Below are positions 1,552 to 64,000 of a DNA stretch of 64,000 nucleotides, piece after piece. The translations under genes were made by a program, and so were the position numbers. The stretch's first letter is position 1. The number at the start of each line of letters is the position of its first letter. The DNA lies in the NCBI GenBank assembly GCA_020633495.1, contig JACKDR010000001.1:438105-502104 (forward strand), read 5' to 3'. The notes beneath the pieces were generated by a model that was not told the DNA's origin, ran no database searches, and saw nothing but the letters and a program-made list of their open reading frames with translations. This stretch comes from Kofleriaceae bacterium. Lineage in GTDB: Bacteria; Myxococcota_A; Polyangia; Haliangiales; Haliangiaceae.

Positions 1552-3378
<1,827 letters not shown>

Positions 3379-4378
3379 CATCGCGCCGTGGATCGCGCTC
3401 GCGCCCGCGCTGCCCGTCGCCTCGCCGCCGCGATCCTCGGCGCCGTCGCCACCGCCATCGCGCTCGCCGCCCCCTCCCCGGCGCGCGCCGACGGCGCATC
3501 CGACCTCGCCGACGCCCGCCGCCTCAAGGCCGCGCTCAACTGGGCCGGCGCGCTCGCCGCCGTCGAGCGCGCGCTCGCCGCCGGCGACGGCGATCCCGTG
3601 CGCGTCGCCGAGGCCCACGAGCTCGCCGGCTCGCTCGCCGCCGGGCTCGGCCGCGACGACGTCGCCGTCGCGCACTTCCGCATCCTGCTGTCGCTGCGCC
3701 CGGACGCCCGGCTGCCCGCCGGCACCTCGCCCAAGATCGTCGCGCCGTTCGACGTCGCCCGCGGCGACGCCGACGCCGGCGTCGCCGGCCCGCTCGCGGT
3801 CCACGTCGAGCCGGGACCGCCGCCGGCGCTGGTCGTCGACCGCGATCCGCTGCACCTGGTCGCGGGCGCGCGCGCCCGCTGGACCGCCGCCGACGGCATC
3901 CCCGCCGAGCTGGTCGCGCGCACGGACGGCGACGGCGACGCGCGCCTCGTCCTCGCGGTCCCGGCCGGCACCCGCGACGTCGAGATCGCCGCCGTCGACG
4001 CCGATGGCAACGCCCTGTGGCGGAGCGACGCGACCGCCGCCTCGGCGGTCGCCGTGACCGCGCCGCCGCGACCGCGCGCCGCGGCGCTGGCGCCGTGGGC
4101 GCGCTGGTACGTGTGGGCCGCGGTCGCGGTGCCGGCCGCCGCGGTCGGCGGCGTCGCGGCGTGGCGGCTCGGCGTCGCCCAGCACGACTGGGACCGGCTG
4201 CGCGCCGACGACGGTGCCCACGACTACTCCGAGCTGACCGCGATCGAGGACCGCGGCCGGCGCCACGCGCTCACCGCCAACCTCGCGTTCGCCGCCGCCG
4301 GCGTCACCGGCGCGGTCGCGGCCGTCCTCCTGGTCCGCGACCTCCGCCACCCGCGCGGCCTCGAGCCGGCGCCGTACG

Positions 4379-5896
<1,518 letters not shown>

Positions 5897-6423: not shown

Positions 6424-7899
6424 ATGAGCCCGCCACCGCCACCCGCGTCGCCGTCGTCGCTCCGCACCCGGTCCCGGTCCCCGTCCTCCGAGCTCGCGGT
6501 CGTCGACGACCAGGGCCGCGCCTTCGACCACGCCGCGCTGCACCGCCGCGCCGCCGCCTGGGCCGCGGCGCTGGCGCGCCGCCACGGCGTCCGCGCCGGC
6601 GATCGCGTCGGCGTGCTCGCCGACGGCTGCACCGAGGTGTTCGTGCTGCGCGCCGCGTGCGAGCACCTCGGCGCCGCGCTGACGCCGCTGTCGTGGCGGC
6701 TGTCGACCGCCGAGCTCGCCGCGGTGACCGCCGACGCCGCGCCGCGGGTGCTGCTGCACGATCGTGCCCACGCCGACGTCGCCGCCGCCCTCGACGCGCC
6801 GCGCGCCGTGCTCGACGCGCCGCCGCCGCGGGTCGCGCCGGTGGCCGCCGCGCCGGCGCTGCCCGACGACGTCGTCCAGGTCCTGTACACCAGCGGCTCG
6901 ACCGGGCGACCGCGCGGCGCCCGCCTGACCCGCCGCCAGCTCGCGTTCAACGCCGCGATCACGGCGCGGCTGTGCGGCCTCGGCGCCGCCGACCGGGTCC
7001 TGGCGCTGCTGCCGCTGTTCCACACCGGCGGCCTCAACTGCCTGGCCACGCCGGTGCTCGCCGCCGGCGGCGCGGTCATGGTCATGGCGCGCTTCGACCC
7101 CGCCGAGGCTGTGGCGCGCATCGAGCGCCACGGCGTCACCGCGATCGTCGCGGTGCCCACGATCTACGACGCGCTGCTCGACGCCGGCCTCGATCGCCGC
7201 CGCGCCCCGGCGCTGCGGGTCCGGCTGGTCGGTGGCGCGCCGGTGACGCCGCGCCTGCTCGAGCGCGCCCGCGCCGCCGGGCTGCCGCTGCGCCAGGGCT
7301 TCGGCATGACCGAGGTCGGCCCCAACTGCTTCACCTTCGGCCCGGTCGGGCCCAGCGACGGCGACGCGTCGAGCTGCGTCGGCGCGCCGGTGCCCGGCAC
7401 CGAGGCCCGCCTGGTCGACGACGGCGGCGCCGACGTCGCGCCCGGCGCCACCGGCGAGCTGTGGCTGCGCGGCCCCCACGTCTTCGCCGGCTACCTCGGG
7501 CGCGCCTCGTCCGGTCGACCGGACGGCTGGTTCGCGACCGGCGACCTGTTCCGGCGCGACGCCGCCGGCGGCTACCACGTCGTCGGCCGCAAGAAGGACA
7601 TGTTCATCTCCGGCGGCGAGAACGTGTACCCGGGCGAGGTCGAGGCCGCGCTCGCCGGCCACCCCGCGATCGCCGAGGTCTGCGTGATCGGCCGCCCCGA
7701 TCCGCGCTGGGGCGAGGTCGGCGTCGCGGTGGTCGCCACCCGCGGCCCGGTCGACGCCGCCGCGCTCGACGCCTGGCTCCGCCGCCGCCTCGCCGCCTAC
7801 AAGGTGCCGAGGGCGTGGCGCTTCGTCACCGCGCTGCCGCGGACCGCGACCGGCAAGATCGCCCGCGCCGAGCTGATCGCCGCAGCGCGAGCAGCGTGA
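6424..7899 (+). CDS. AMP-dependent acyl-CoA synthetase/ligase
   Basis: AMP-binding signature LYTSGSTGRPRG plus GFGMTE and a C-terminal TGK motif; start MSPPPP at 6424. Confidence 0.85.
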   Translation: MSPPPPPASPSSLRTRSRSPSSELAVVDDQGRAFDHAALHRRAAAWAAALARRHGVRAGDRVGVLADGCTEVFVLRAACEHLGAALTPLSWRLSTAELAAVTADAAPRVLLHDRAHADVAAALDAPRAVLDAPPPRVAPVAAAPALPDDVVQVLYTSGSTGRPRGARLTRRQLAFNAAITARLCGLGAADRVLALLPLFHTGGLNCLATPVLAAGGAVMVMARFDPAEAVARIERHGVTAIVAVPTIYDALLDAGLDRRRAPALRVRLVGGAPVTPRLLERARAAGLPLRQGFGMTEVGPNCFTFGPVGPSDGDASSCVGAPVPGTEARLVDDGGADVAPGATGELWLRGPHVFAGYLGRASSGRPDGWFATGDLFRRDAAGGYHVVGRKKDMFISGGENVYPGEVEAALAGHPAIAEVCVIGRPDPRWGEVGVAVVATRGPVDAAALDAWLRRRLAAYKVPRAWRFVTALPRTATGKIARAELIAAARAA

Positions 7900-56770: not shown

Positions 56771-56902
56771 GTGACGCCCGCTTGTCGGGACGCGATCAGC
56801 CCGGCGTGGCATGGTCCGCGGTCGATGATCCCGTCGCAACGGACCCCGCGATCGACGGCGCGACGACGCGACGGCGCCGCCGCCGTGACGGGCGCGACCA
56901 GT

Positions 56903-59608
56903 ATGGGGATCGGCGTGACGCCGCGCGGCCAGCTGACGCTGGTCGACGACGGCGACCAGGCCCCGGTCGGCATCGAGGTCGCGGCGCGGTTGCGCGCCGG
57001 GTTCGCGGGTGGTGACGGCGCGGGCCTGGTCTGGCTCGGCACCGCCGAGGTGCGCACCACGCTGCCGGCGTCGCTCGGGTTCTGGCGCGACCTGGGGGCT
57101 CGCTACGTCGCGACGGTGTGCGCGCGCGGCGAAGACGCGGCGGTCACACCGGTCGCGCCTCCGGACCTCGAGACGCTGACCGCGCTCGCCGCCGCGGCAC
57201 CGCCGGCGCCCGGCGCCGAGTACGTCGACGCCGCGCTGCTCGACGCGGTCTGGCGCCGCCTCGACGACGCGTTCCGCGCCGAGGTCGACCGCACCCGAGG
57301 CGGGGTGGCGGCGCTGCTGCGGGCGCGTGACGCGGCCTGGCATCTGGTCGGGCGGGTCCACTTCAACCTCGCCGAGCACCGGGGCGACGACGACGCGCCG
57401 TTCGCGTTCCTGGCCACGTACACCACCAGCCTCAACCGTCAGGCGCGCGCGCAACACGTGCCGCTGGGCCAGGCGCTCCGCGACTACGCCGGGGCCCGGG
57501 CCCGGGCCCAGCTCCACGCCCTGCTGTCGCCGGTGCAGCGCGCCGCCGAGCGCTGCGCGTGGGTGGCGGAGCTGGTCGAGAGCGGCGACGTCTACCACCC
57601 GCTGCGCTGGAGCGCCGCCGAGGCGTCGCGCCTGCTCCGCGACGTGCCCGCCCTCGAGGCCGCGGGGGTGGTGGTGCGGATGCCGGCGGGCTGGGGTGGA
57701 GCCCGACCGCCGAGGCCGCAGGCGACCGTCACCGTCGGCAGCCGCGCGCCCGGCGGGCTCGGCCTCGACGCCCTGCTCGACTACCGCGCCGAGGTCTCGC
57801 TCGACGGAGAACCGCTCACCGACGACGAGCTCCGGGCGCTGCTCGACGGCGCCGACGGCCTGCGCCTGCTGCGCGGCCGCTGGGTCGAGCTCGATCGCGA
57901 GCAGCTCGCGGCAGCGCTCGATCGCCTCCGCGCCGCCGAGCGAGCCACCGCCGACGGCCTCAGCTTCGCCGAGGCCATGCGCCTGGTCGCCGGGGCGTCC
58001 CTCGCGGCTGACGACGCCGCGCCGCCCGAGGCCCGACCGCGCGTGGTGCCGGGCCCGTGGCTGGCCGAGACCCTCGCCGGGCTGCGCGCGCCCGACGGGC
58101 TCGCCGCGATCGAACCTGGCGAGGCGCTGCACGCCCGGCTGCGCCCGTACCAGGAGGTGGGCGTGCGCTGGCTGTATCTGCTGACCCGGCTGGGGCTGGG
58201 CGCCTGCCTCGCCGACGACATGGGCCTGGGCAAGACGATCCAGGTGATCGCGCTGCTGCTGGTGTCGCGCCGACCACGCGCCGCCACGCCCCCGAGCCTG
58301 CTGGTAGCGCCGGCGTCGCTGCTGGGCAACTGGACCGACGAGCTGGCGCGGTTCGCGCCCGGCCTGCGGGTGCGCATCGCCCACGCCTCGGCGATGCCCG
58401 CCGACCGGCTGACCGCCACGACGCCACCGGTGCTGCGCGACGTCGACCTGGTCATCACCAGCTACGGCACCCTGCCGCGGGTGCCGTGGCTGACCGCAGG
58501 CTCGTGGGACCTGCTGATCGTCGACGAGGCCCAGGCGATCAAGAACCCGGGCGCGCGCCAGACCCGCGCGATCAAGGCGCTGCGCGCGCGGGCGCGGATC
58601 GCGATGACCGGCACGCCGGTCGAGAACCGACTCGGCGACCTGTGGTCGATCTTCGACTTCCTCAACCCGGGGTTGCTGGGCACGGCGCGCCAGTTCACGA
58701 CCTTCACCCGCCAGCTCGACGCCGGCGGCTACGGCCCGCTGCGCGCCCTGATCCAGCCGTACGTGCTGCGCCGGCTCAAGTCCGATCGCCGGATCGTCGC
58801 CGATCTGCCGGACAAGACCGAGGTGATCGCCTACTGCGGCCTGTCGCCGCGCCAGGCGGCGTTGTACCAGCAGACCGTCGACGAGCTGGGCGGGACCCTG
58901 CGGCGCGCGAACGGCATGCAGCGCCGCGGCCTCGTGCTGGCGGCGCTGACGCGGCTCAAGCAGATCTGCAACCACCCCGCGCACGGGCTGGCCGGCGACG
59001 ACTGGCCCGAGGCCGACAGCGGCAAGCTGGGCCGGGTCCGCGAGCTGGCCGAGGTCGTCGCCGCCAAGCAGGAGCAGCTGCTGGTGTTCACCCAGTTCCG
59101 CGAGGCCACCACGCCACTGGCCGCGCTGCTCGCCAGCGTGTTCGGCCGCGACGGCGCGATCCTTCACGGCGGCACGCCGGTGGCGCAGCGCGCCCGACTG
59201 GTCCGACGCTTCCAGGACGGCGACGCGCCGTTCTTCGTGCTGTCGCTCAAGGCCGGGGGCACCGGGCTCAACCTGACCGCCGCCGCGCACGTCGTGCACT
59301 TCGATCGGTGGTGGAATCCGGCCGTCGAGGATCAGGCCACCGACCGCGCGTACCGCATCGGCCAGCACCGCAACGTCCTGGTCCACAAGCTGGTGTGCCG
59401 CGGCACCGTCGAGGAGAAGGTCGACGCCCTGATCGCCGGCAAGCGGGCCCTGGCCCGCGAGCTGCTCGAGGGCGACGGCGCCGCGGCGCTCACCGAGCTG
59501 TCCGACGCCGAGCTGATGGACCTGGTCGCGCTCGACCTCGGGCGCGCGATGGTCGAGGGTACCGGCAACGGCGCGGCGGCGAACCGCCGCAAGGAGCGAC
59601 GCACATGA
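56903..59608 (+). CDS. SNF2-family helicase/ATPase; start uncertain, could be as early as 56771
   Basis: SNF2_N DMGLGKT, DEAQAIKN, TGTPVEN; Helicase_C ...DRAYRIGQ. Confidence 0.85.
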   Translation: MGIGVTPRGQLTLVDDGDQAPVGIEVAARLRAGFAGGDGAGLVWLGTAEVRTTLPASLGFWRDLGARYVATVCARGEDAAVTPVAPPDLETLTALAAAAPPAPGAEYVDAALLDAVWRRLDDAFRAEVDRTRGGVAALLRARDAAWHLVGRVHFNLAEHRGDDDAPFAFLATYTTSLNRQARAQHVPLGQALRDYAGARARAQLHALLSPVQRAAERCAWVAELVESGDVYHPLRWSAAEASRLLRDVPALEAAGVVVRMPAGWGGARPPRPQATVTVGSRAPGGLGLDALLDYRAEVSLDGEPLTDDELRALLDGADGLRLLRGRWVELDREQLAAALDRLRAAERATADGLSFAEAMRLVAGASLAADDAAPPEARPRVVPGPWLAETLAGLRAPDGLAAIEPGEALHARLRPYQEVGVRWLYLLTRLGLGACLADDMGLGKTIQVIALLLVSRRPRAATPPSLLVAPASLLGNWTDELARFAPGLRVRIAHASAMPADRLTATTPPVLRDVDLVITSYGTLPRVPWLTAGSWDLLIVDEAQAIKNPGARQTRAIKALRARARIAMTGTPVENRLGDLWSIFDFLNPGLLGTARQFTTFTRQLDAGGYGPLRALIQPYVLRRLKSDRRIVADLPDKTEVIAYCGLSPRQAALYQQTVDELGGTLRRANGMQRRGLVLAALTRLKQICNHPAHGLAGDDWPEADSGKLGRVRELAEVVAAKQEQLLVFTQFREATTPLAALLASVFGRDGAILHGGTPVAQRARLVRRFQDGDAPFFVLSLKAGGTGLNLTAAAHVVHFDRWWNPAVEDQATDRAYRIGQHRNVLVHKLVCRGTVEEKVDALIAGKRALARELLEGDGAAALTELSDAELMDLVALDLGRAMVEGTGNGAAANRRKERRT

Positions 59609-60729
59609 GCTGGGGGAGCGGCTACGGATACGGCTGGGCACCGAGCAAGACCGTGGCGCAGCGGCGCGCCGAGGCCGCGCGAGCGATCGCCAAGGCGGCC
59701 ACGCGGGGCCGCGCCCTGGCGCCGGTGCGGATCGAAGGCCGCACCATCGCCCGCACGTTCTGGGGCAAGGCCTGGTGCGACAACCTCGAGCGGTACCAGG
59801 ATCTCGCCTACCGGCTCGACCGCGGGCGCAGCTACGTGCGCAGCGGGTCGGTGATCGACCTGCGGATCGGGGAGGGCCGGGTGGAGTCCCAGGTCCTGGG
59901 CAGCGATCGGTACCAGGTGGAGATCGACATCGACCGCCTCGACGCCAAGGTGTGGCGGGCGATCCAGCGCGACTGCGCCGGCAGCATCGGCTCGCTGGTC
60001 GAGCTGCTCGGCGGCGAGCTCTCCGACGCCGTGATGACGCGGCTGTGCGCCGACGGCAAGGGCCTGTTCCCGACGCCGCGGGCGATCCACATGAGCTGCA
60101 GCTGTCCGGACTACGCCACGATGTGCAAGCACGTCGCGGCGACCTTGTACGGCGTCGGCGCCCGGCTCGACGCCGAGCCGTCGATGCTGTTCACGCTGCG
60201 TGGCGTGACCACCGACGATCTGGTCGCCGCCGTGACCCGCGAGCTGCCGGCGGCGAGGCCGGCACGCGGCGGCGCGCGGGTGCTCGACGGCGGCGACGAC
60301 CTGGGCGCGATGTTCGGCATCGACCTCGCGAGCAGCGTCGGCGGGGACGACGCGGGCGACGCGGGCGACGCGGGCGACGCGGGCGACGCGGCGAAGGGGG
60401 CGAAGACGCCGAAGGCCAGGGCCAAGGCCAAGGCCAAGGCCAAGGGCAAGCCCAAGGCCGGGGCCAGGATCGGGACCAAGGCCGCGACCGGGAACAAGAA
60501 CGAGGTCGCGGCCAAGACCGCGGCCATGGCCAAGGCCAAGCCCAAGCCCAAGCCCAAGCCCAAGCCCAAGGCCAAGGCCAAGACCAAGCCCAAGACCAAG
60601 ACCAAGACCAAGACCGCGGCCAAGACCAAGACCAAGACCAAGACCGCGGCCGAGACCAAGACCAAGTCCAAGCCCAAAGCCAGGTCCAAGCCCAAGGCCG
60701 CGATCAGGACCAGCGCCCGGCCCCGGTGA
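59605..60729 (+). CDS. SWIM zinc-finger protein with (GDA)n and Lys/Pro/Ala/Thr-rich histone-like C-terminal tail
   Basis: ATG overlaps the helicase stop (ATGA), AAGGAG RBS; SWIM CSCPDYATMCKH; tail AKAKAKGKPK...KPKPKPKPK. Confidence 0.8.
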   Translation: MSWGSGYGYGWAPSKTVAQRRAEAARAIAKAATRGRALAPVRIEGRTIARTFWGKAWCDNLERYQDLAYRLDRGRSYVRSGSVIDLRIGEGRVESQVLGSDRYQVEIDIDRLDAKVWRAIQRDCAGSIGSLVELLGGELSDAVMTRLCADGKGLFPTPRAIHMSCSCPDYATMCKHVAATLYGVGARLDAEPSMLFTLRGVTTDDLVAAVTRELPAARPARGGARVLDGGDDLGAMFGIDLASSVGGDDAGDAGDAGDAGDAAKGAKTPKARAKAKAKAKGKPKAGARIGTKAATGNKNEVAAKTAAMAKAKPKPKPKPKPKAKAKTKPKTKTKTKTAAKTKTKTKTAAETKTKSKPKARSKPKAAIRTSARPR

Positions 60730-60848
60730 CGGGCCACGCGCTCGGCGCACCCACACCGGGCACCGGCGCCCGCGCGCAGAGCGGCCCGCTCGTCCGCAGA
60801 CGGGCTCGTCGCACCTGCACGGAGACCGCCCCGCGCAGACGCCCGCGC

Positions 60849-61341: not shown

Positions 61342-62020
61342 TTACCAGTTACCCCGCTCGTAGTCGCGCAGCCGCCAGGTCCGGCCGTCGAGGTGATCGA
61401 CGACGGTCCCGTCCTGGCAGCGCACGGTGCGCCGCTTGTCGGCGCGCTCACCACGGCCGATCTGGGCGCGCCGGTCGCGCGCCCGGGCGTCGGCCACCCG
61501 CTCCGCCGCCAGCGCGACCAGCCGGGCCCGCAGGATCGCCAGCGCGCGCTCGCGATTGAACAGCTGCGACCGCTCGGACTCGCAGCGGACCCGCAGCCCG
61601 GTCGGCCGGTGCGTCAGTTGCACCGCGCTGTCGGTCTTCTGCAGGTGCTGACCGCCGCTGCCCGAGGCCCGGCACAGCGTCCACTCGAGGTCGGCGGCGC
61701 GCACCTCGACCGCCGCCGGCGCGACCTCGGGCAGGACCGCGACGGTGATGGTGCTCGAGTGCACGCGGCCCCGCTTCTCGGTGGGCGGCACGCGCTGCCA
61801 GCGGTGACCGCCGGCCTCGCCGGCGAACAGCGCCGCCGCGCCGCGCCCCGCGGCGCGGAAGACGATCAGCCCCGGGCGCTCGTCGACGAGCTCGAGGTCA
61901 AAGTCGCCTCCGCTCCCCGAGCTGGCCATAGATGCGCAGCTGCTCGCGCACCAGCAGGCGGGCGTCCGCGCCGCCCTCGGCGGCGCGGATCTCGACGATC
62001 ACGATCTCCTCGTTCGACAT
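61342..62020 (-). CDS. prfH: PrfH-like short class-I release-factor paralog (domains 2-4, GGQ) read through a +1 frameshift at CTT-TGA-C
   Basis: Frame 0 from ATG 62020 gives MSNEEIVIVEIRAAEGGADARLLVREQLRIYGQLGERRRL then TGA; the +1 frame continues DFDLELVDE...HRWQRVPPTEKRGRVHSSTITVAVLPE...SGSGGQHLQKTDSAVQLTH...SERSQ, matching E. coli PrfH as recalled. Confidence 0.65.
61897..61912 (-). promoter_or_regulatory. RF2-type +1 programmed ribosomal frameshift cassette: internal SD GGAGG, 3-nt spacer, CTT TGA C
   Basis: Minus-strand sequence ggg gag cgG AGG cga CTT TGA Cct; E. coli prfB has AGGGGG uau CUU UGA C. Confidence 0.6.
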
Positions 62021-62400
62021 CACGGATCTCCTTGTTCTCTGCTCGCTTCGCAAACGACTGCCAGGACGCTCGGCCGGTGGGCCGCGTCAAGGCTTGCGCG
62101 AAGGTGCAGACGAGATCGACATGACGAAGAGCTAGCTATCATGGGAGCGCGGGGCGCGCCAGGAGGAAGCGGAGGATGCAGTGCATGGGTGGGTGACCTC
62201 AGTCCTCCGGACTCATCGTCGCGCGAGTTGGATCTGCTGCCGCGAAGAGAACGTCTTGCTTCGAATCCGGTCCGTCCGTCTCGTCGCTATCGCGGCTCCC
62301 ATCCGTCCACAAGCGCGAGAGTCTAAGTTAGTTGATCGAACGTGCTCCAGATCTCGGTTCTTTGTTGCCCGCAACTCGGGTTCGCGGCCAGAATGCAGGC

Positions 62401-63153
62401 ATGTCGCGGAGTTCCATCGAGTGGACGGACGAGACGTGGAACCCGGTGACCGGGTGCGAGAAGGTCTCGCCTGGCTGCAAACACTGCTACGCGGAACGCT
62501 TTGCTGAGCGGTTCCGAGGCGTGGACGGTCATCCATACCAGCAGGGCTTCGATCCCCAGCTTCGCCCTGATCGAGTCGAACAACCGCGGGCCTGGAAGTC
62601 ACCACGCATGGTGTTCGTGAACAGCATGAGCGACCTATTTGGCGACTTTGTACCTGATTCGTATCTCGCGAAAGTCTTCAGGGTGATGCGAGACACGCCG
62701 CAGCACACGTACCAGATTCTGACGAAGCGCGCAGAACGCCTGGAGACATGGACGCGTTCGCAGCGCTGGCTCTTGACCGCGTCGAACATATGGCTCGGCG
62801 TATCTGTTGAGGACAGGAAGTACGGCGTTCCGCGGATCGGGCATCTTCAGAAAGCCAATGCCGCCTGTCGGTTTCTCTCTGTCGAGCCGTTGCTGGAAGG
62901 GCTTGGCACTCTCGACCTTGCGAAGATCGACTGGGTAATCGCGGGTGGAGAGAGCGGGCCCGGTGCGCGTCCGATGCAACTCGAATGGGTGCGTAGCGTC
63001 CGCGATCAGTGCATCAAGAAGCGGGTCGCGTTCTTCTTCAAGCAATGGGGGGGCGTCCAGAAACACCGAAGCGGCCGAGTGCTGGACGGTCGAACGTGGG
63101 ACGAGATTCCCGAAAGGTCTCGACTAGAACAGTCTCCCCTGGCCGCTCGGTAG
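62401..63153 (+). CDS. phage Gp37/Gp68-family protein (DUF5131, three-Cys motif) in a low-GC island
   Basis: SIEWTDETWNPVTGCEKVSPGCKHCYAE hallmark; local GC ~55-60% against ~73% for the window. Confidence 0.8.
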   Translation: MSRSSIEWTDETWNPVTGCEKVSPGCKHCYAERFAERFRGVDGHPYQQGFDPQLRPDRVEQPRAWKSPRMVFVNSMSDLFGDFVPDSYLAKVFRVMRDTPQHTYQILTKRAERLETWTRSQRWLLTASNIWLGVSVEDRKYGVPRIGHLQKANAACRFLSVEPLLEGLGTLDLAKIDWVIAGGESGPGARPMQLEWVRSVRDQCIKKRVAFFFKQWGGVQKHRSGRVLDGRTWDEIPERSRLEQSPLAAR

Positions 63154-63996
63154 CTTGGCGGTGATGCTGTTCCAGATCTTGTCGCCGAGCGAATCCTTGG
63201 ACGCGAAGACTAGGTGGTAGAGCACCACCTGTTGCATGTTCTTGATGGACGGGTACGTCACGTCCCCGCGCTCCGGGTAACCGAGCATGGCGAGTTGGCG
63301 GCGAAAGAGTGGAATCAGCAGGCGCACGTCGTCTCCATGGACGATGTCAACACCCCATCTCGAGCGCGGCAGACCCAGGAATCCCTCGAAGCGCTCGTGC
63401 TCGAGGAAGTTGCGCTTCATCGACCCAAGTGGAAAGTGGATAATGAGATCCATCCGGGGAAACGCGGCGAGCTTACGGATCGTCTCGAATTTCAGGTTAC
63501 TTGCCCCGAATGGATCGATCAGCGCGACCGCGAACCCGTTGGGTGGGATCTTGCCCACAACCTTGTCAATGGTCTGGTTGCAGTCTCCTCCGATGATCGT
63601 GACGCGTTTGTCCCCTTCGGTGCGCTTCTGAAGGGCGGCGATGTTCTCCTCATCGATGTCGCACAAGATAATGTCCGTGAAGCCGTGTTCCCGGTGCGGG
63701 ATGCTCGTCGCGATGAGGGGACTCCCGTCGATGAACTCCACTGGTTCACGGACGCGGGCCTTCCCTGGACCCGCGAAGAGATCGATCAACGCCGTGCCAC
63801 CCGTCCCTTTTGGGGGCATGAATCGCGCACGTACGTTGCGGGTCGCGGCGAGGTAATTGCGCAAATAGTGGTGCTTGTCCTTCGCCCACACTCCCACGCA
63901 CTGGACCGGGAGCTGATCGATCGGATCGACAGCGGCGGTGCAGTTGCCGTTCCTCTTCTCGCACTTCTTCATGTTGCCCACTCCAGGCATTAGCAT
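63124..63996 (-). CDS. TcmP-like three-Cys-motif partner protein, SAM-methyltransferase-like fold
   Basis: LIDLFAGPG (MTase motif I-like) and IDPFG (motif IV-like); convergent with the DUF5131 gene, overlapping it by 30 nt. Confidence 0.65.
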   Translation of the reverse strand: MLMPGVGNMKKCEKRNGNCTAAVDPIDQLPVQCVGVWAKDKHHYLRNYLAATRNVRARFMPPKGTGGTALIDLFAGPGKARVREPVEFIDGSPLIATSIPHREHGFTDIILCDIDEENIAALQKRTEGDKRVTIIGGDCNQTIDKVVGKIPPNGFAVALIDPFGASNLKFETIRKLAAFPRMDLIIHFPLGSMKRNFLEHERFEGFLGLPRSRWGVDIVHGDDVRLLIPLFRRQLAMLGYPERGDVTYPSIKNMQQVVLYHLVFASKDSLGDKIWNSITAKLPSGQGRLF

Positions 63997-64000
63997 ACGC

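Follow-up and report, generated by a model that had tools for sequence, protein, structure and literature searches.

A prfB-type +1 frameshift cassette conserved in a family of short RF1-like release-factor genes of Myxococcota and phages

We describe a gene for a short class-I release factor in a 64,000-nucleotide stretch of DNA, hereafter the window, from Kofleriaceae bacterium (GCA_020633495.1, contig JACKDR010000001.1, forward-strand positions 438,105 to 502,104). The gene (62020..61342), like all its features, lies on the minus strand. Its reading frame breaks at CTT TGA C behind an internal Shine-Dalgarno-like (SD-like) GGAGG, and the two frames together specify a factor of the RF1 type that lacks domain 1. 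The same cassette stands at the same codon in most relatives, both bacterial and viral. The gene is likely to encode a stand-alone auxiliary RF1-like factor, the synthesis of which is gated by slow termination via a +1 frameshift. That a genuine programmed +1 frameshift gives the fused factor is held here with high confidence; that its output is coupled to termination capacity is held with moderate confidence. The gene prfB is the standard bacterial example of +1 programmed frameshifting and, to our knowledge, the sole release-factor gene so far described with frameshift autoregulation.

Direct reading of the minus strand gives the following anatomy (Table 1). Translation from the ATG in frame 0 yields MSNEEIVIVEIRAAEGGADARLLVREQLRIYGQLGERRRL and then meets TGA at 61900-61898. 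The junction consists, in order, of GGAGG, CGA, CTT, TGA and C: the GGAGG is encoded by CGG AGG, and CGA forms the spacer between it and the shift codon. From 61899 the +1 frame reads DLELVDERPG...SGSGGQH...ERGNW. The joined product of both frames has 225 amino acids (aa), and the break falls at codon 41, within domain 2. A preliminary description, made from the letters alone, had placed an RF2-style cassette at this non-RF2 position, with the break at CTT-TGA-C and GGAGG 3 nucleotides upstream. These coordinates and the description are accurate, and the position inside domain 2 proves to be conserved; the length of about 227 aa it had given is corrected here, while the composition, with GGQ and with PPT at the PxT position, stands. 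The 15-nucleotide pattern GGAGGNNNCTTTGAC occurs a single time in the 64-kb window, against 0.01 occurrences expected from shuffles.

In a search of 5.8 billion proteins, the close matches were of two kinds. One kind, of about 222 aa, spans 97-98% of the joined query; the other, a larger group, covers exactly 83% of the query and begins at the break. The alternative-frame leaders of the second kind finish in GG-x-F-D/S, the +1-frame translation of GGAGGNNNCTTTGA/AG. The database entries are C-terminal open reading frames (ORFs) only, labelled 'PCRF domain-containing protein' or 'peptide chain release factor 1'. A 15-billion-protein collection has no exact entry for the fused product of the window gene or for those from four isolate or long-contig genomes; there, again, the C-terminal ORFs alone are present.

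At the DNA level, we compared a bacterial set of 80 related loci from different GTDB species (of 321 genomic relatives) with a viral set made up of the best 80 of 220 IMG/VR relatives (GC content 0.39-0.68, contigs up to 619 kb). The +1 break occurs at the same codon in 75 of the 80 bacterial loci, or 75 of the 77 informative ones. L035 and L039 are uninterrupted, L075 and L077 have in-frame TGAs in place of the frameshift, and L018 and L043 are cut by a contig end. The same CTT-stop +1 cassette is found in 70/80 viral loci; six are uninterrupted and two have a single in-frame stop. Homologs checked for the CTTTGAC/SD cassette and for uninterrupted ORFs thus give the opposite of what the preliminary description had named as evidence against it. 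The bacterial carriers are mostly Myxococcota (Kofleriaceae, Polyangia, Sandaracinaceae, Nannocystaceae), with a few metagenome-assembled genomes (MAGs) of other phyla; the isolates Minicystis rosea DSM 24000, Archangium gephyra SDU49 and Pyxidicoccus fallax DSM 14698 are among them. The 485-kb huge-phage genome LR745208.1 (GenBank) also carries the cassette.

All 145 frameshifted copies, bacterial and viral, have CTT as the shift codon; a stop codon follows it in every one, and the next base is C in 121/145. Within the bacterial copies CTT fills the shift codon in 74/74, against 3.2% of the Leu codons elsewhere in the same genes, and AGG fills the SD-forming Arg codon in 52/74, against 2.8% of the Arg codons elsewhere. 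These enrichments reveal selection on the cassette at the nucleotide level. Of the 74 bacterial copies, 48 have the SD-like element as GGAGG at 3 nucleotides, 14 have a partial or offset version and 12 have none. The stop is TGA in 104 copies (72%), TAG in 36 (25%) and TAA in five (3%), and its identity flips between near relatives: L026 (TGA) and L042 (TAG) have 95% nucleotide identity, yet differ in the cassette stop, and L024 and L015, a further example, have 18 upstream nucleotides in common.

Both halves of the gene are under constraint. Over 144 copies, the positional entropy at frame 0 codon positions 1/2/3 is 0.76/0.59/1.49 on the 5' side of the site, and at +1-frame codon positions it is 1.30/0.87/1.70 on the 3' side. 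Since the third-position peak moves frame at the site, the frame under purifying selection shifts by +1. The peptide of the first frame (ORF0) is conserved over 144 genes, in which variation peaks at the third positions of frame 0, and the joined proteins align gap-free across the junction with uninterrupted homologs.

These data bear directly on whether the break is a sequencing or assembly error, or the mark of a decaying pseudogene. The closest protein comes from a Kofleriaceae MAG, the source is itself probably metagenome-assembled, and annotators call only a 195-aa C-terminal ORF ('PCRF domain-containing protein'), all of which would fit such an artefact. Against it, the same 1-nucleotide offset, codon and CTT-stop motif recur in 145 independent sequences that span Illumina, Nanopore and finished isolate genomes, each half is under purifying selection in its own frame, and apart from the junction nothing disrupts the frame of the window gene. 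We consequently regard error or decay as excluded by the comparative data and vanishingly improbable; the preliminary description had judged a chance sequencing error at this motif unlikely.

In a neighbour-joining tree the family is monophyletic with respect to two RF1 outgroups, and its frameshifted and uninterrupted members are interspersed. The uninterrupted members resemble 1-nucleotide deletions of the cassette, with GGT TTG ACC or a junction F-D-L-E / L-D-V-E; both the interspersion and the deletion-like versions are also features of prfB. A joint neighbour-joining tree mixes viral and bacterial copies at depth and places the window gene in a crown clade of 35 bacterial sequences, mostly of the Kofleriaceae/Haliangiales type.

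Table 1. Features of the short release-factor gene in the window
Feature	Position	Strand	Remark
Ribosome-binding site AAGGAG	62028..62033	-	7 nucleotides 5' of start codon; direct reading
ATG start codon	62020-62018	-	
ORF0	61898..62020	-	40 codons + TGA; translation
Internal Shine-Dalgarno-like GGAGG	61907..61911	-	3 nucleotides 5' of shift codon; presumed frameshift stimulator
Shift site CTT TGA C	61897..61903	-	CTT = 61903-61901
+1-frame ORF	61342..61899	-	185 codons + TAA (61344-61342); rest of domain 2, GGQ domain 3, domain 4
PPT tripeptide at RF1 PxT 'anticodon' position	61780..61788	-	Alignment to T. thermophilus RF1
GGQ catalytic motif (peptidyl-tRNA hydrolysis)	61648..61656	-	Translation

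Most homologs likewise have a GGAG-type motif ahead of the ATG. A further reading of the junction would dispense with fusion altogether: GGAGG would be a ribosome-binding site for independent or coupled initiation of the C-terminal protein, and ORF0 would encode a short leader peptide. GGAGG is indeed a good SD sequence, and one phage variant (L090), in which an in-frame TAG is followed directly by ATG, could permit termination-reinitiation. However, the +1-frame codons past GGAGG are TTT GAC CTC GAG, and neither the window nor the consensus offers an ATG, GTG or TTG within range. The upstream ATG chosen by annotators (61929) lacks conservation, and homologs differ in the length of their predicted N-termini. 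Moreover, it is ORF0 that supplies the RF1-type codon-recognition domain with its first strand and helix (the VEIRAAEGGxDA motif), conserved elements that, together with the AEGGxD corresponding to RF1 G116/E119, are missing from the C-terminal protein alone. In an AlphaFold model of the joined product the ORF0 part forms a strand (6-13) and a helix (18-37) with predicted local distance difference test (pLDDT) values of 88-96. We therefore consider separate initiation of the C-terminal protein very improbable.

The window protein is an RF1-type class-I release factor reduced to domains 2-4, and not PrfH. The joined product carries the Pfam PCRF and RF-1 domains, and among NCBIfam hidden Markov models (HMMs) it scores 209.9 bits with RF1, 131.6 with RF2 and 76.6 with PrfH. 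A full-length match to the RF1 models is not reached (NF001859, 209.9 bits against a cutoff of 400; TIGR00019, 202.3 against 423): the RF1 profile is matched over positions 102-314 of 347 only, leaving the domain 1 portion unmatched. Upstream of the start codon the frame could be extended by 11 codons at most, so domain 1 is absent, as the preliminary description had stated. NCBIfam holds no model for the short RF1-like family. Among PDB sequences, the RF1 proteins from T. maritima and T. thermophilus match best (E about 1e-48 to 1e-45). The AlphaFold model of the 225-aa product, built from a 42-sequence alignment, has a mean pLDDT of 87.7 and superimposes on ribosome-bound RF1 with a template modelling (TM) score of 0.90, a root-mean-square deviation of 2.0-2.2 Å and 41% identity.

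The codon-reading residues of RF1 are likewise kept. Relative to T. thermophilus RF1, the following pairs are observed: Q75/Q181, H87-S88/H193-T194, G16/G116 and D19/E119; P78-P79-T80 (PPT) aligns with P184-V185-T186 (PVT). The window protein thus retains the Gln and the His/Ser-Thr residues with which RF1 reads codons, a PxT-type tripeptide and the switch-loop region, and G122, G123 and Q124 (GGQ) are invariant in the 42-sequence alignment. It differs from RF1 (prfA) in the lack of the ~100-aa domain 1 and of the C-terminal extension, in the profile score of 210 bits against a cutoff of 400, in the replacement of E119 by Asp, and in that its expression needs recoding. The third residue of the PxT-position tripeptide also varies across the family between T, N, S and G (in the bacterial copies T 37, N 26, S 5, G 5). 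With these RF1-like residues as the guide to which codons are read, we infer that the short factor probably reads UAA/UAG. An outlier in this respect is the copy from LR745208.1, an uncultured phage (L162 ~5000-5520), which is frameshifted and has a shortened codon-recognition loop, HRVQRTSNGRIHSST. The PP(T/N)EKRG segment is absent from it, making codon reading in the RF1 manner impossible for this copy.

Domain 1 is the part of release factors that contacts RF3 and the L11 stalk. According to a passage in PMC1586002 that cites Mora et al. 2003, RF1 truncated of domain 1 supports peptide release in vitro and function in vivo.

The protein had been called PrfH-like in the preliminary description, and an associated reading would make it a PrfH-type rescue factor for damaged ribosomes that recognises a damaged decoding centre rather than a stop codon. 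There are shared traits: PrfH (RFH) is likewise a domain-1-less class-I paralog with GGQ and a sporadic, mobile distribution. The variable third residue at the PxT position would also suit this reading, as would the location of many copies in phage modules of translation and tRNA genes, surroundings that are associated with host-phage conflict. However, HMM scores, PDB sequence matches and fold comparison all place the protein in a different subfamily and rule out a PrfH identity: the PrfH model TIGR03072 gives 76.6 bits, below its cutoff of 166.65; the PrfH chains in the PDB match at E 1e-11 and over the GGQ domain only (residues ~109-198); and the model fits PrfH with a TM score of 0.66 at 22% identity, against 0.90 at 41% for RF1. 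The protein keeps Q75, H87/S88 and the PP(T/N) loop, whereas the loop of PrfH is divergent. No RtcB lies near the window gene, as previously noted, and all-against-all clustering, over 81 bacterial loci, of the ORFs that lie up to about 4.5 kb from the gene recovered neither RtcB nor any neighbour common to more than five loci. A PrfH-type function is accordingly extremely improbable. Identity with ArfB/ICT1, in which a GGQ domain with a basic C-terminal tail occurs without codon-recognition domain, was also rejected: the ArfB model matches residues 103-136 only, at 39 bits against a cutoff of 100, and the protein has a full PCRF codon-recognition domain.

A few members of the family depart from the frameshift. 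L086 5001-5660 (3300028920_002946) and L090 5001-5651 (3300037067_027616) are syntenic IMG/VR phage loci with a single in-frame stop, CTA TGA CTG in the former and TAT TAG ATG in the latter, at the codon that holds the shift-site stop in other copies. Coding goes on in frame 0, and none of three conserved neighbouring genes contains an in-frame stop; this suggests readthrough or reinitiation at these two loci instead of frameshifting. L075 5001-5654, L077 5001-5657 and L163 5001-5636 (LR745206.1, a 635-kb uncultured phage), with GC contents of 0.30-0.40, have two in-frame TGAs and no frameshift; one TGA position (VSI/VHI-TGA) is common to all three and the other to L075 and L163. Translation with TGA as sense extends essentially the release-factor gene only at these three loci, so that a genome-wide reassignment of TGA is unsupported, other genes not being lengthened in what is, at 10 kb, a small sample. 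Judged from sequence, the trait common to all the recoding forms is that the full-length protein needs a failure to terminate.

Two of these loci deserve separate mention. Although binned with Bacteroidetes and Methanobacterium MAGs, L075 and L077 look phage-like. In L077 a tmRNA gene (3372-3740) and a tRNA with the anticodon CUA (6563-6635) lie ~1-2 kb from the release-factor gene; the latter is a UAG suppressor, termed 'Pyl' by ARAGORN. This combination hints at a phage code-change module.

The following mechanism may be proposed for the window copy. Ribosomes would begin at the ATG at 62020, translate 40 codons and arrive at CUU UGA C. If a release factor decodes the stop fast, the 40-aa fragment would be freed. 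If termination is slow, with the stop in its weak UGA-C context in the A site, the peptidyl-tRNA-Leu would re-pair from CUU to UUU, a slip that SD:anti-SD contact 3 nucleotides upstream would assist, as in prfB. Translation in the +1 frame would then yield the 225-aa factor, an RF1-like hydrolase without the RF3/L11-interacting domain. The balance of slip and termination would be set by the speed with which release factors decode the cassette stop, and synthesis of the auxiliary factor would thus be coupled to termination capacity. In this scheme both the frameshifting itself and the response of its rate to release-factor levels are what we infer from the cassette. UGA is the codon decoded by RF2. 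Hence the sensor codon of the window copy would create a cross-regulatory loop, unless the factor also reads UGA; in relatives the sensor codon would be UAG or UAA. The proposal in the preliminary description that expression is gated by the efficiency of UGA termination therefore fits the window copy, but does not extend to the family, which uses TGA, TAG and TAA and so has no dedicated RF2 sensor.

The E. coli prfB site consists of an SD-like element, a 3-nucleotide spacer and CTT TGA C. The cassette in the short RF1-like family follows the same grammar: an SD-like element, a 3-nucleotide spacer, CUU, and an in-frame stop followed by C. In both cases ORF0 yields a short product without function, and a functional protein requires the +1 frame. 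The differences are that the present family is of the RF1 type and without domain 1, that its site is at codon 41 in domain 2 and not at ~codon 26 in domain 1, and that it is common on phage contigs. The stop codon further separates the two. In prfB the motif stop is TGA in 98.6% of 8160 cases and never TAG (Prince, Lin and Feaga, 2025), whereas in the present family TGA/TAG/TAA stand at 72/25/3%.

This last difference is one of several observations that weigh against a sensing device built on the prfB model. With the stop not fixed to TGA, the circuit cannot be a simple RF2-specific autoregulatory loop. If the short factor reads UAA/UAG only, the arrangement with UGA, here and in 72% of the copies, would on the sequence evidence not be autoregulatory. 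The 12/74 bacterial copies without a recognisable SD-like element mean that the stimulator is not obligatory. At the PxT position, about 45% of the copies have N, S or G instead of Thr, which makes the codon specificity, and even the dependence on a stop codon, uncertain. Finally, the frameshift could merely fix a low expression level, without sensing.

This last point amounts to a reading in its own right, under which the frameshift is real but constitutive, with a fixed low output, perhaps one that sets the ratio of 40-aa peptide to factor. It would accommodate a stop identity untied to one release factor (TGA 104, TAG 36, TAA 5). The link between the cassette stop and the residue at the PxT position, the 'anticodon' tripeptide, is also weak: by Fisher's test, with kinship ignored, p=0.007 in the bacterial set, and it is not reproduced in the viral set (p=1). 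However, what is kept in all 145 copies is a stop, mostly in the weak stop-C context, and not a rare sense codon. Other members use in-frame stops without any frameshift (L086 and L090; L075, L077 and L163), and dependence on termination failure is common to all variants. On balance we consider constitutive output unlikely, and favour coupling to termination capacity with the moderate confidence given above.

In the window, the neighbours of the gene are an unknown 143-aa ORF on one side and a lower-GC stretch on the other. The GC content of the upstream region (62001-64000) is ~0.60, against ~0.75. The stretch holds a gene for a DUF5131 protein (62332-63153, plus strand; Pfam E 3e-100) and a convergent 290-aa ORF without a Pfam match (63124-63996, minus strand). 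It is probably a horizontally acquired island, cut by the window end. The low-GC island that the preliminary description saw abutting the gene is thus real; it is incidental and not part of the feature, and none of the neighbours is conserved from locus to locus. Scans of 60.5-64 kb for Rfam families, promoters and terminators returned nothing relevant. At 56771-60729 (plus strand) an ORF resembling an SNF2-type helicase, as judged by sequence reading, is followed by a SWIM-zinc-finger protein, the long, repetitive, Lys/Ala/Pro/Thr-rich tail of which explains the strong AT skew at 60-61 kb. A sub-threshold Rfam match to CRISPR-DR20 (60697-60732) is due to the same repetitive tail and is most likely a chance one.

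The viral loci have a more distinctive setting. Many lie within dense tRNA arrays, with up to 23 tRNAs per 10 kb (23 in L153 1-10664; L086, L090, L119 and L130 are other examples among L082-L161), and two contain a tmRNA (e.g. L089 4215-4573). No tRNA arrays of this kind were seen at the Myxococcota loci. Genes for HNH and GIY-YIG homing endonucleases, NADAR proteins and CCA-adding enzymes recur loosely near the viral copies. A viral neighbour cluster resembling RNA ligase has no Pfam match, and we make no claim for it. In L082, L084, L119 and L153 a tRNA-Leu(GAG), the isoacceptor that would read CUU, occurs within 10 kb. The same four-gene tRNA-Lys array precedes the gene in L062 4317-4793, from a Gemmatimonadota MAG, and in L146 4079-4915, from IMG/VR. 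Because these two loci share the array, some of the non-Myxococcota GTDB matches are probably phage or prophage sequences binned with their host.

Release-factor genes are known from large phages: the Lak, Jade and Agate phages carry RF1/RF2 genes beside tRNAs and translation genes, and these have been proposed to reshape host termination (Borges et al., bioRxiv 10.1101/2021.08.26.457843). The short RF1-like genes resemble them in their association with tRNAs and translation genes in large phages, and differ in encoding a short factor, in the frameshift or in-frame stops, and in their standard-code surroundings. The word frameshifting occurs nowhere in that study, which thus mentions no such event in its release-factor genes. 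For PrfH genes 'no discernable ORF interruptions' are reported, and a reviewer comment on the same paper holds that the RF1 family is without a frameshift mechanism (PMC1586002). Our literature search, outside which most subscription journals lie, turned up no frameshift described for a release-factor gene of the RF1-like, PrfH or phage-encoded kinds. None is described in the PrfH hypothesis paper, a 2016 frameshifting review, the GeneTack survey, the Burroughs and Aravind survey, the 2025 prfB survey or the phage stop-codon recoding study. What appears to be new, although an earlier mention is possible, is a prfB-type device in an RF1-type, partly phage-borne gene family with an unconstrained stop.

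The cassette would thus be a second, independent occurrence of that of prfB, in an RF1-type gene and at a different position. The family would provide a natural experiment on the signal, in which CUU and a stop are the essential parts, some copies do without the SD-like element and the stop may be any of the three. It would also be evidence that the design of the cassette is not tied to RF2 specificity. It brings to light, too, a widespread RF1 paralog without domain 1, which appears in current annotation pipelines as a truncated 'PCRF domain-containing protein'. A broader, tentative interpretation, which we offer as possible only, is that of a mobile family of short RF1-like 'backup' factors, made only when host RF1/RF2 are insufficient and carrying several sensors of termination failure: a +1 frameshift at UGA/UAG/UAA, a single in-frame stop, or two in-frame UGAs. 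If true, such a family would be shared by giant phages, Myxococcota and other bacteria, and would be called upon, for example, when a phage takes over the cell, when stop codons are reassigned or when release factors come under attack. In this interpretation the variable PP(T/N/S/G) loop may confer a relaxed or broadened stop specificity on the factor, with which all the cassette variants would be autoregulatory. With the link to the translation modules of giant phages, the sensing and correction of termination capacity by phages and their hosts becomes testable.

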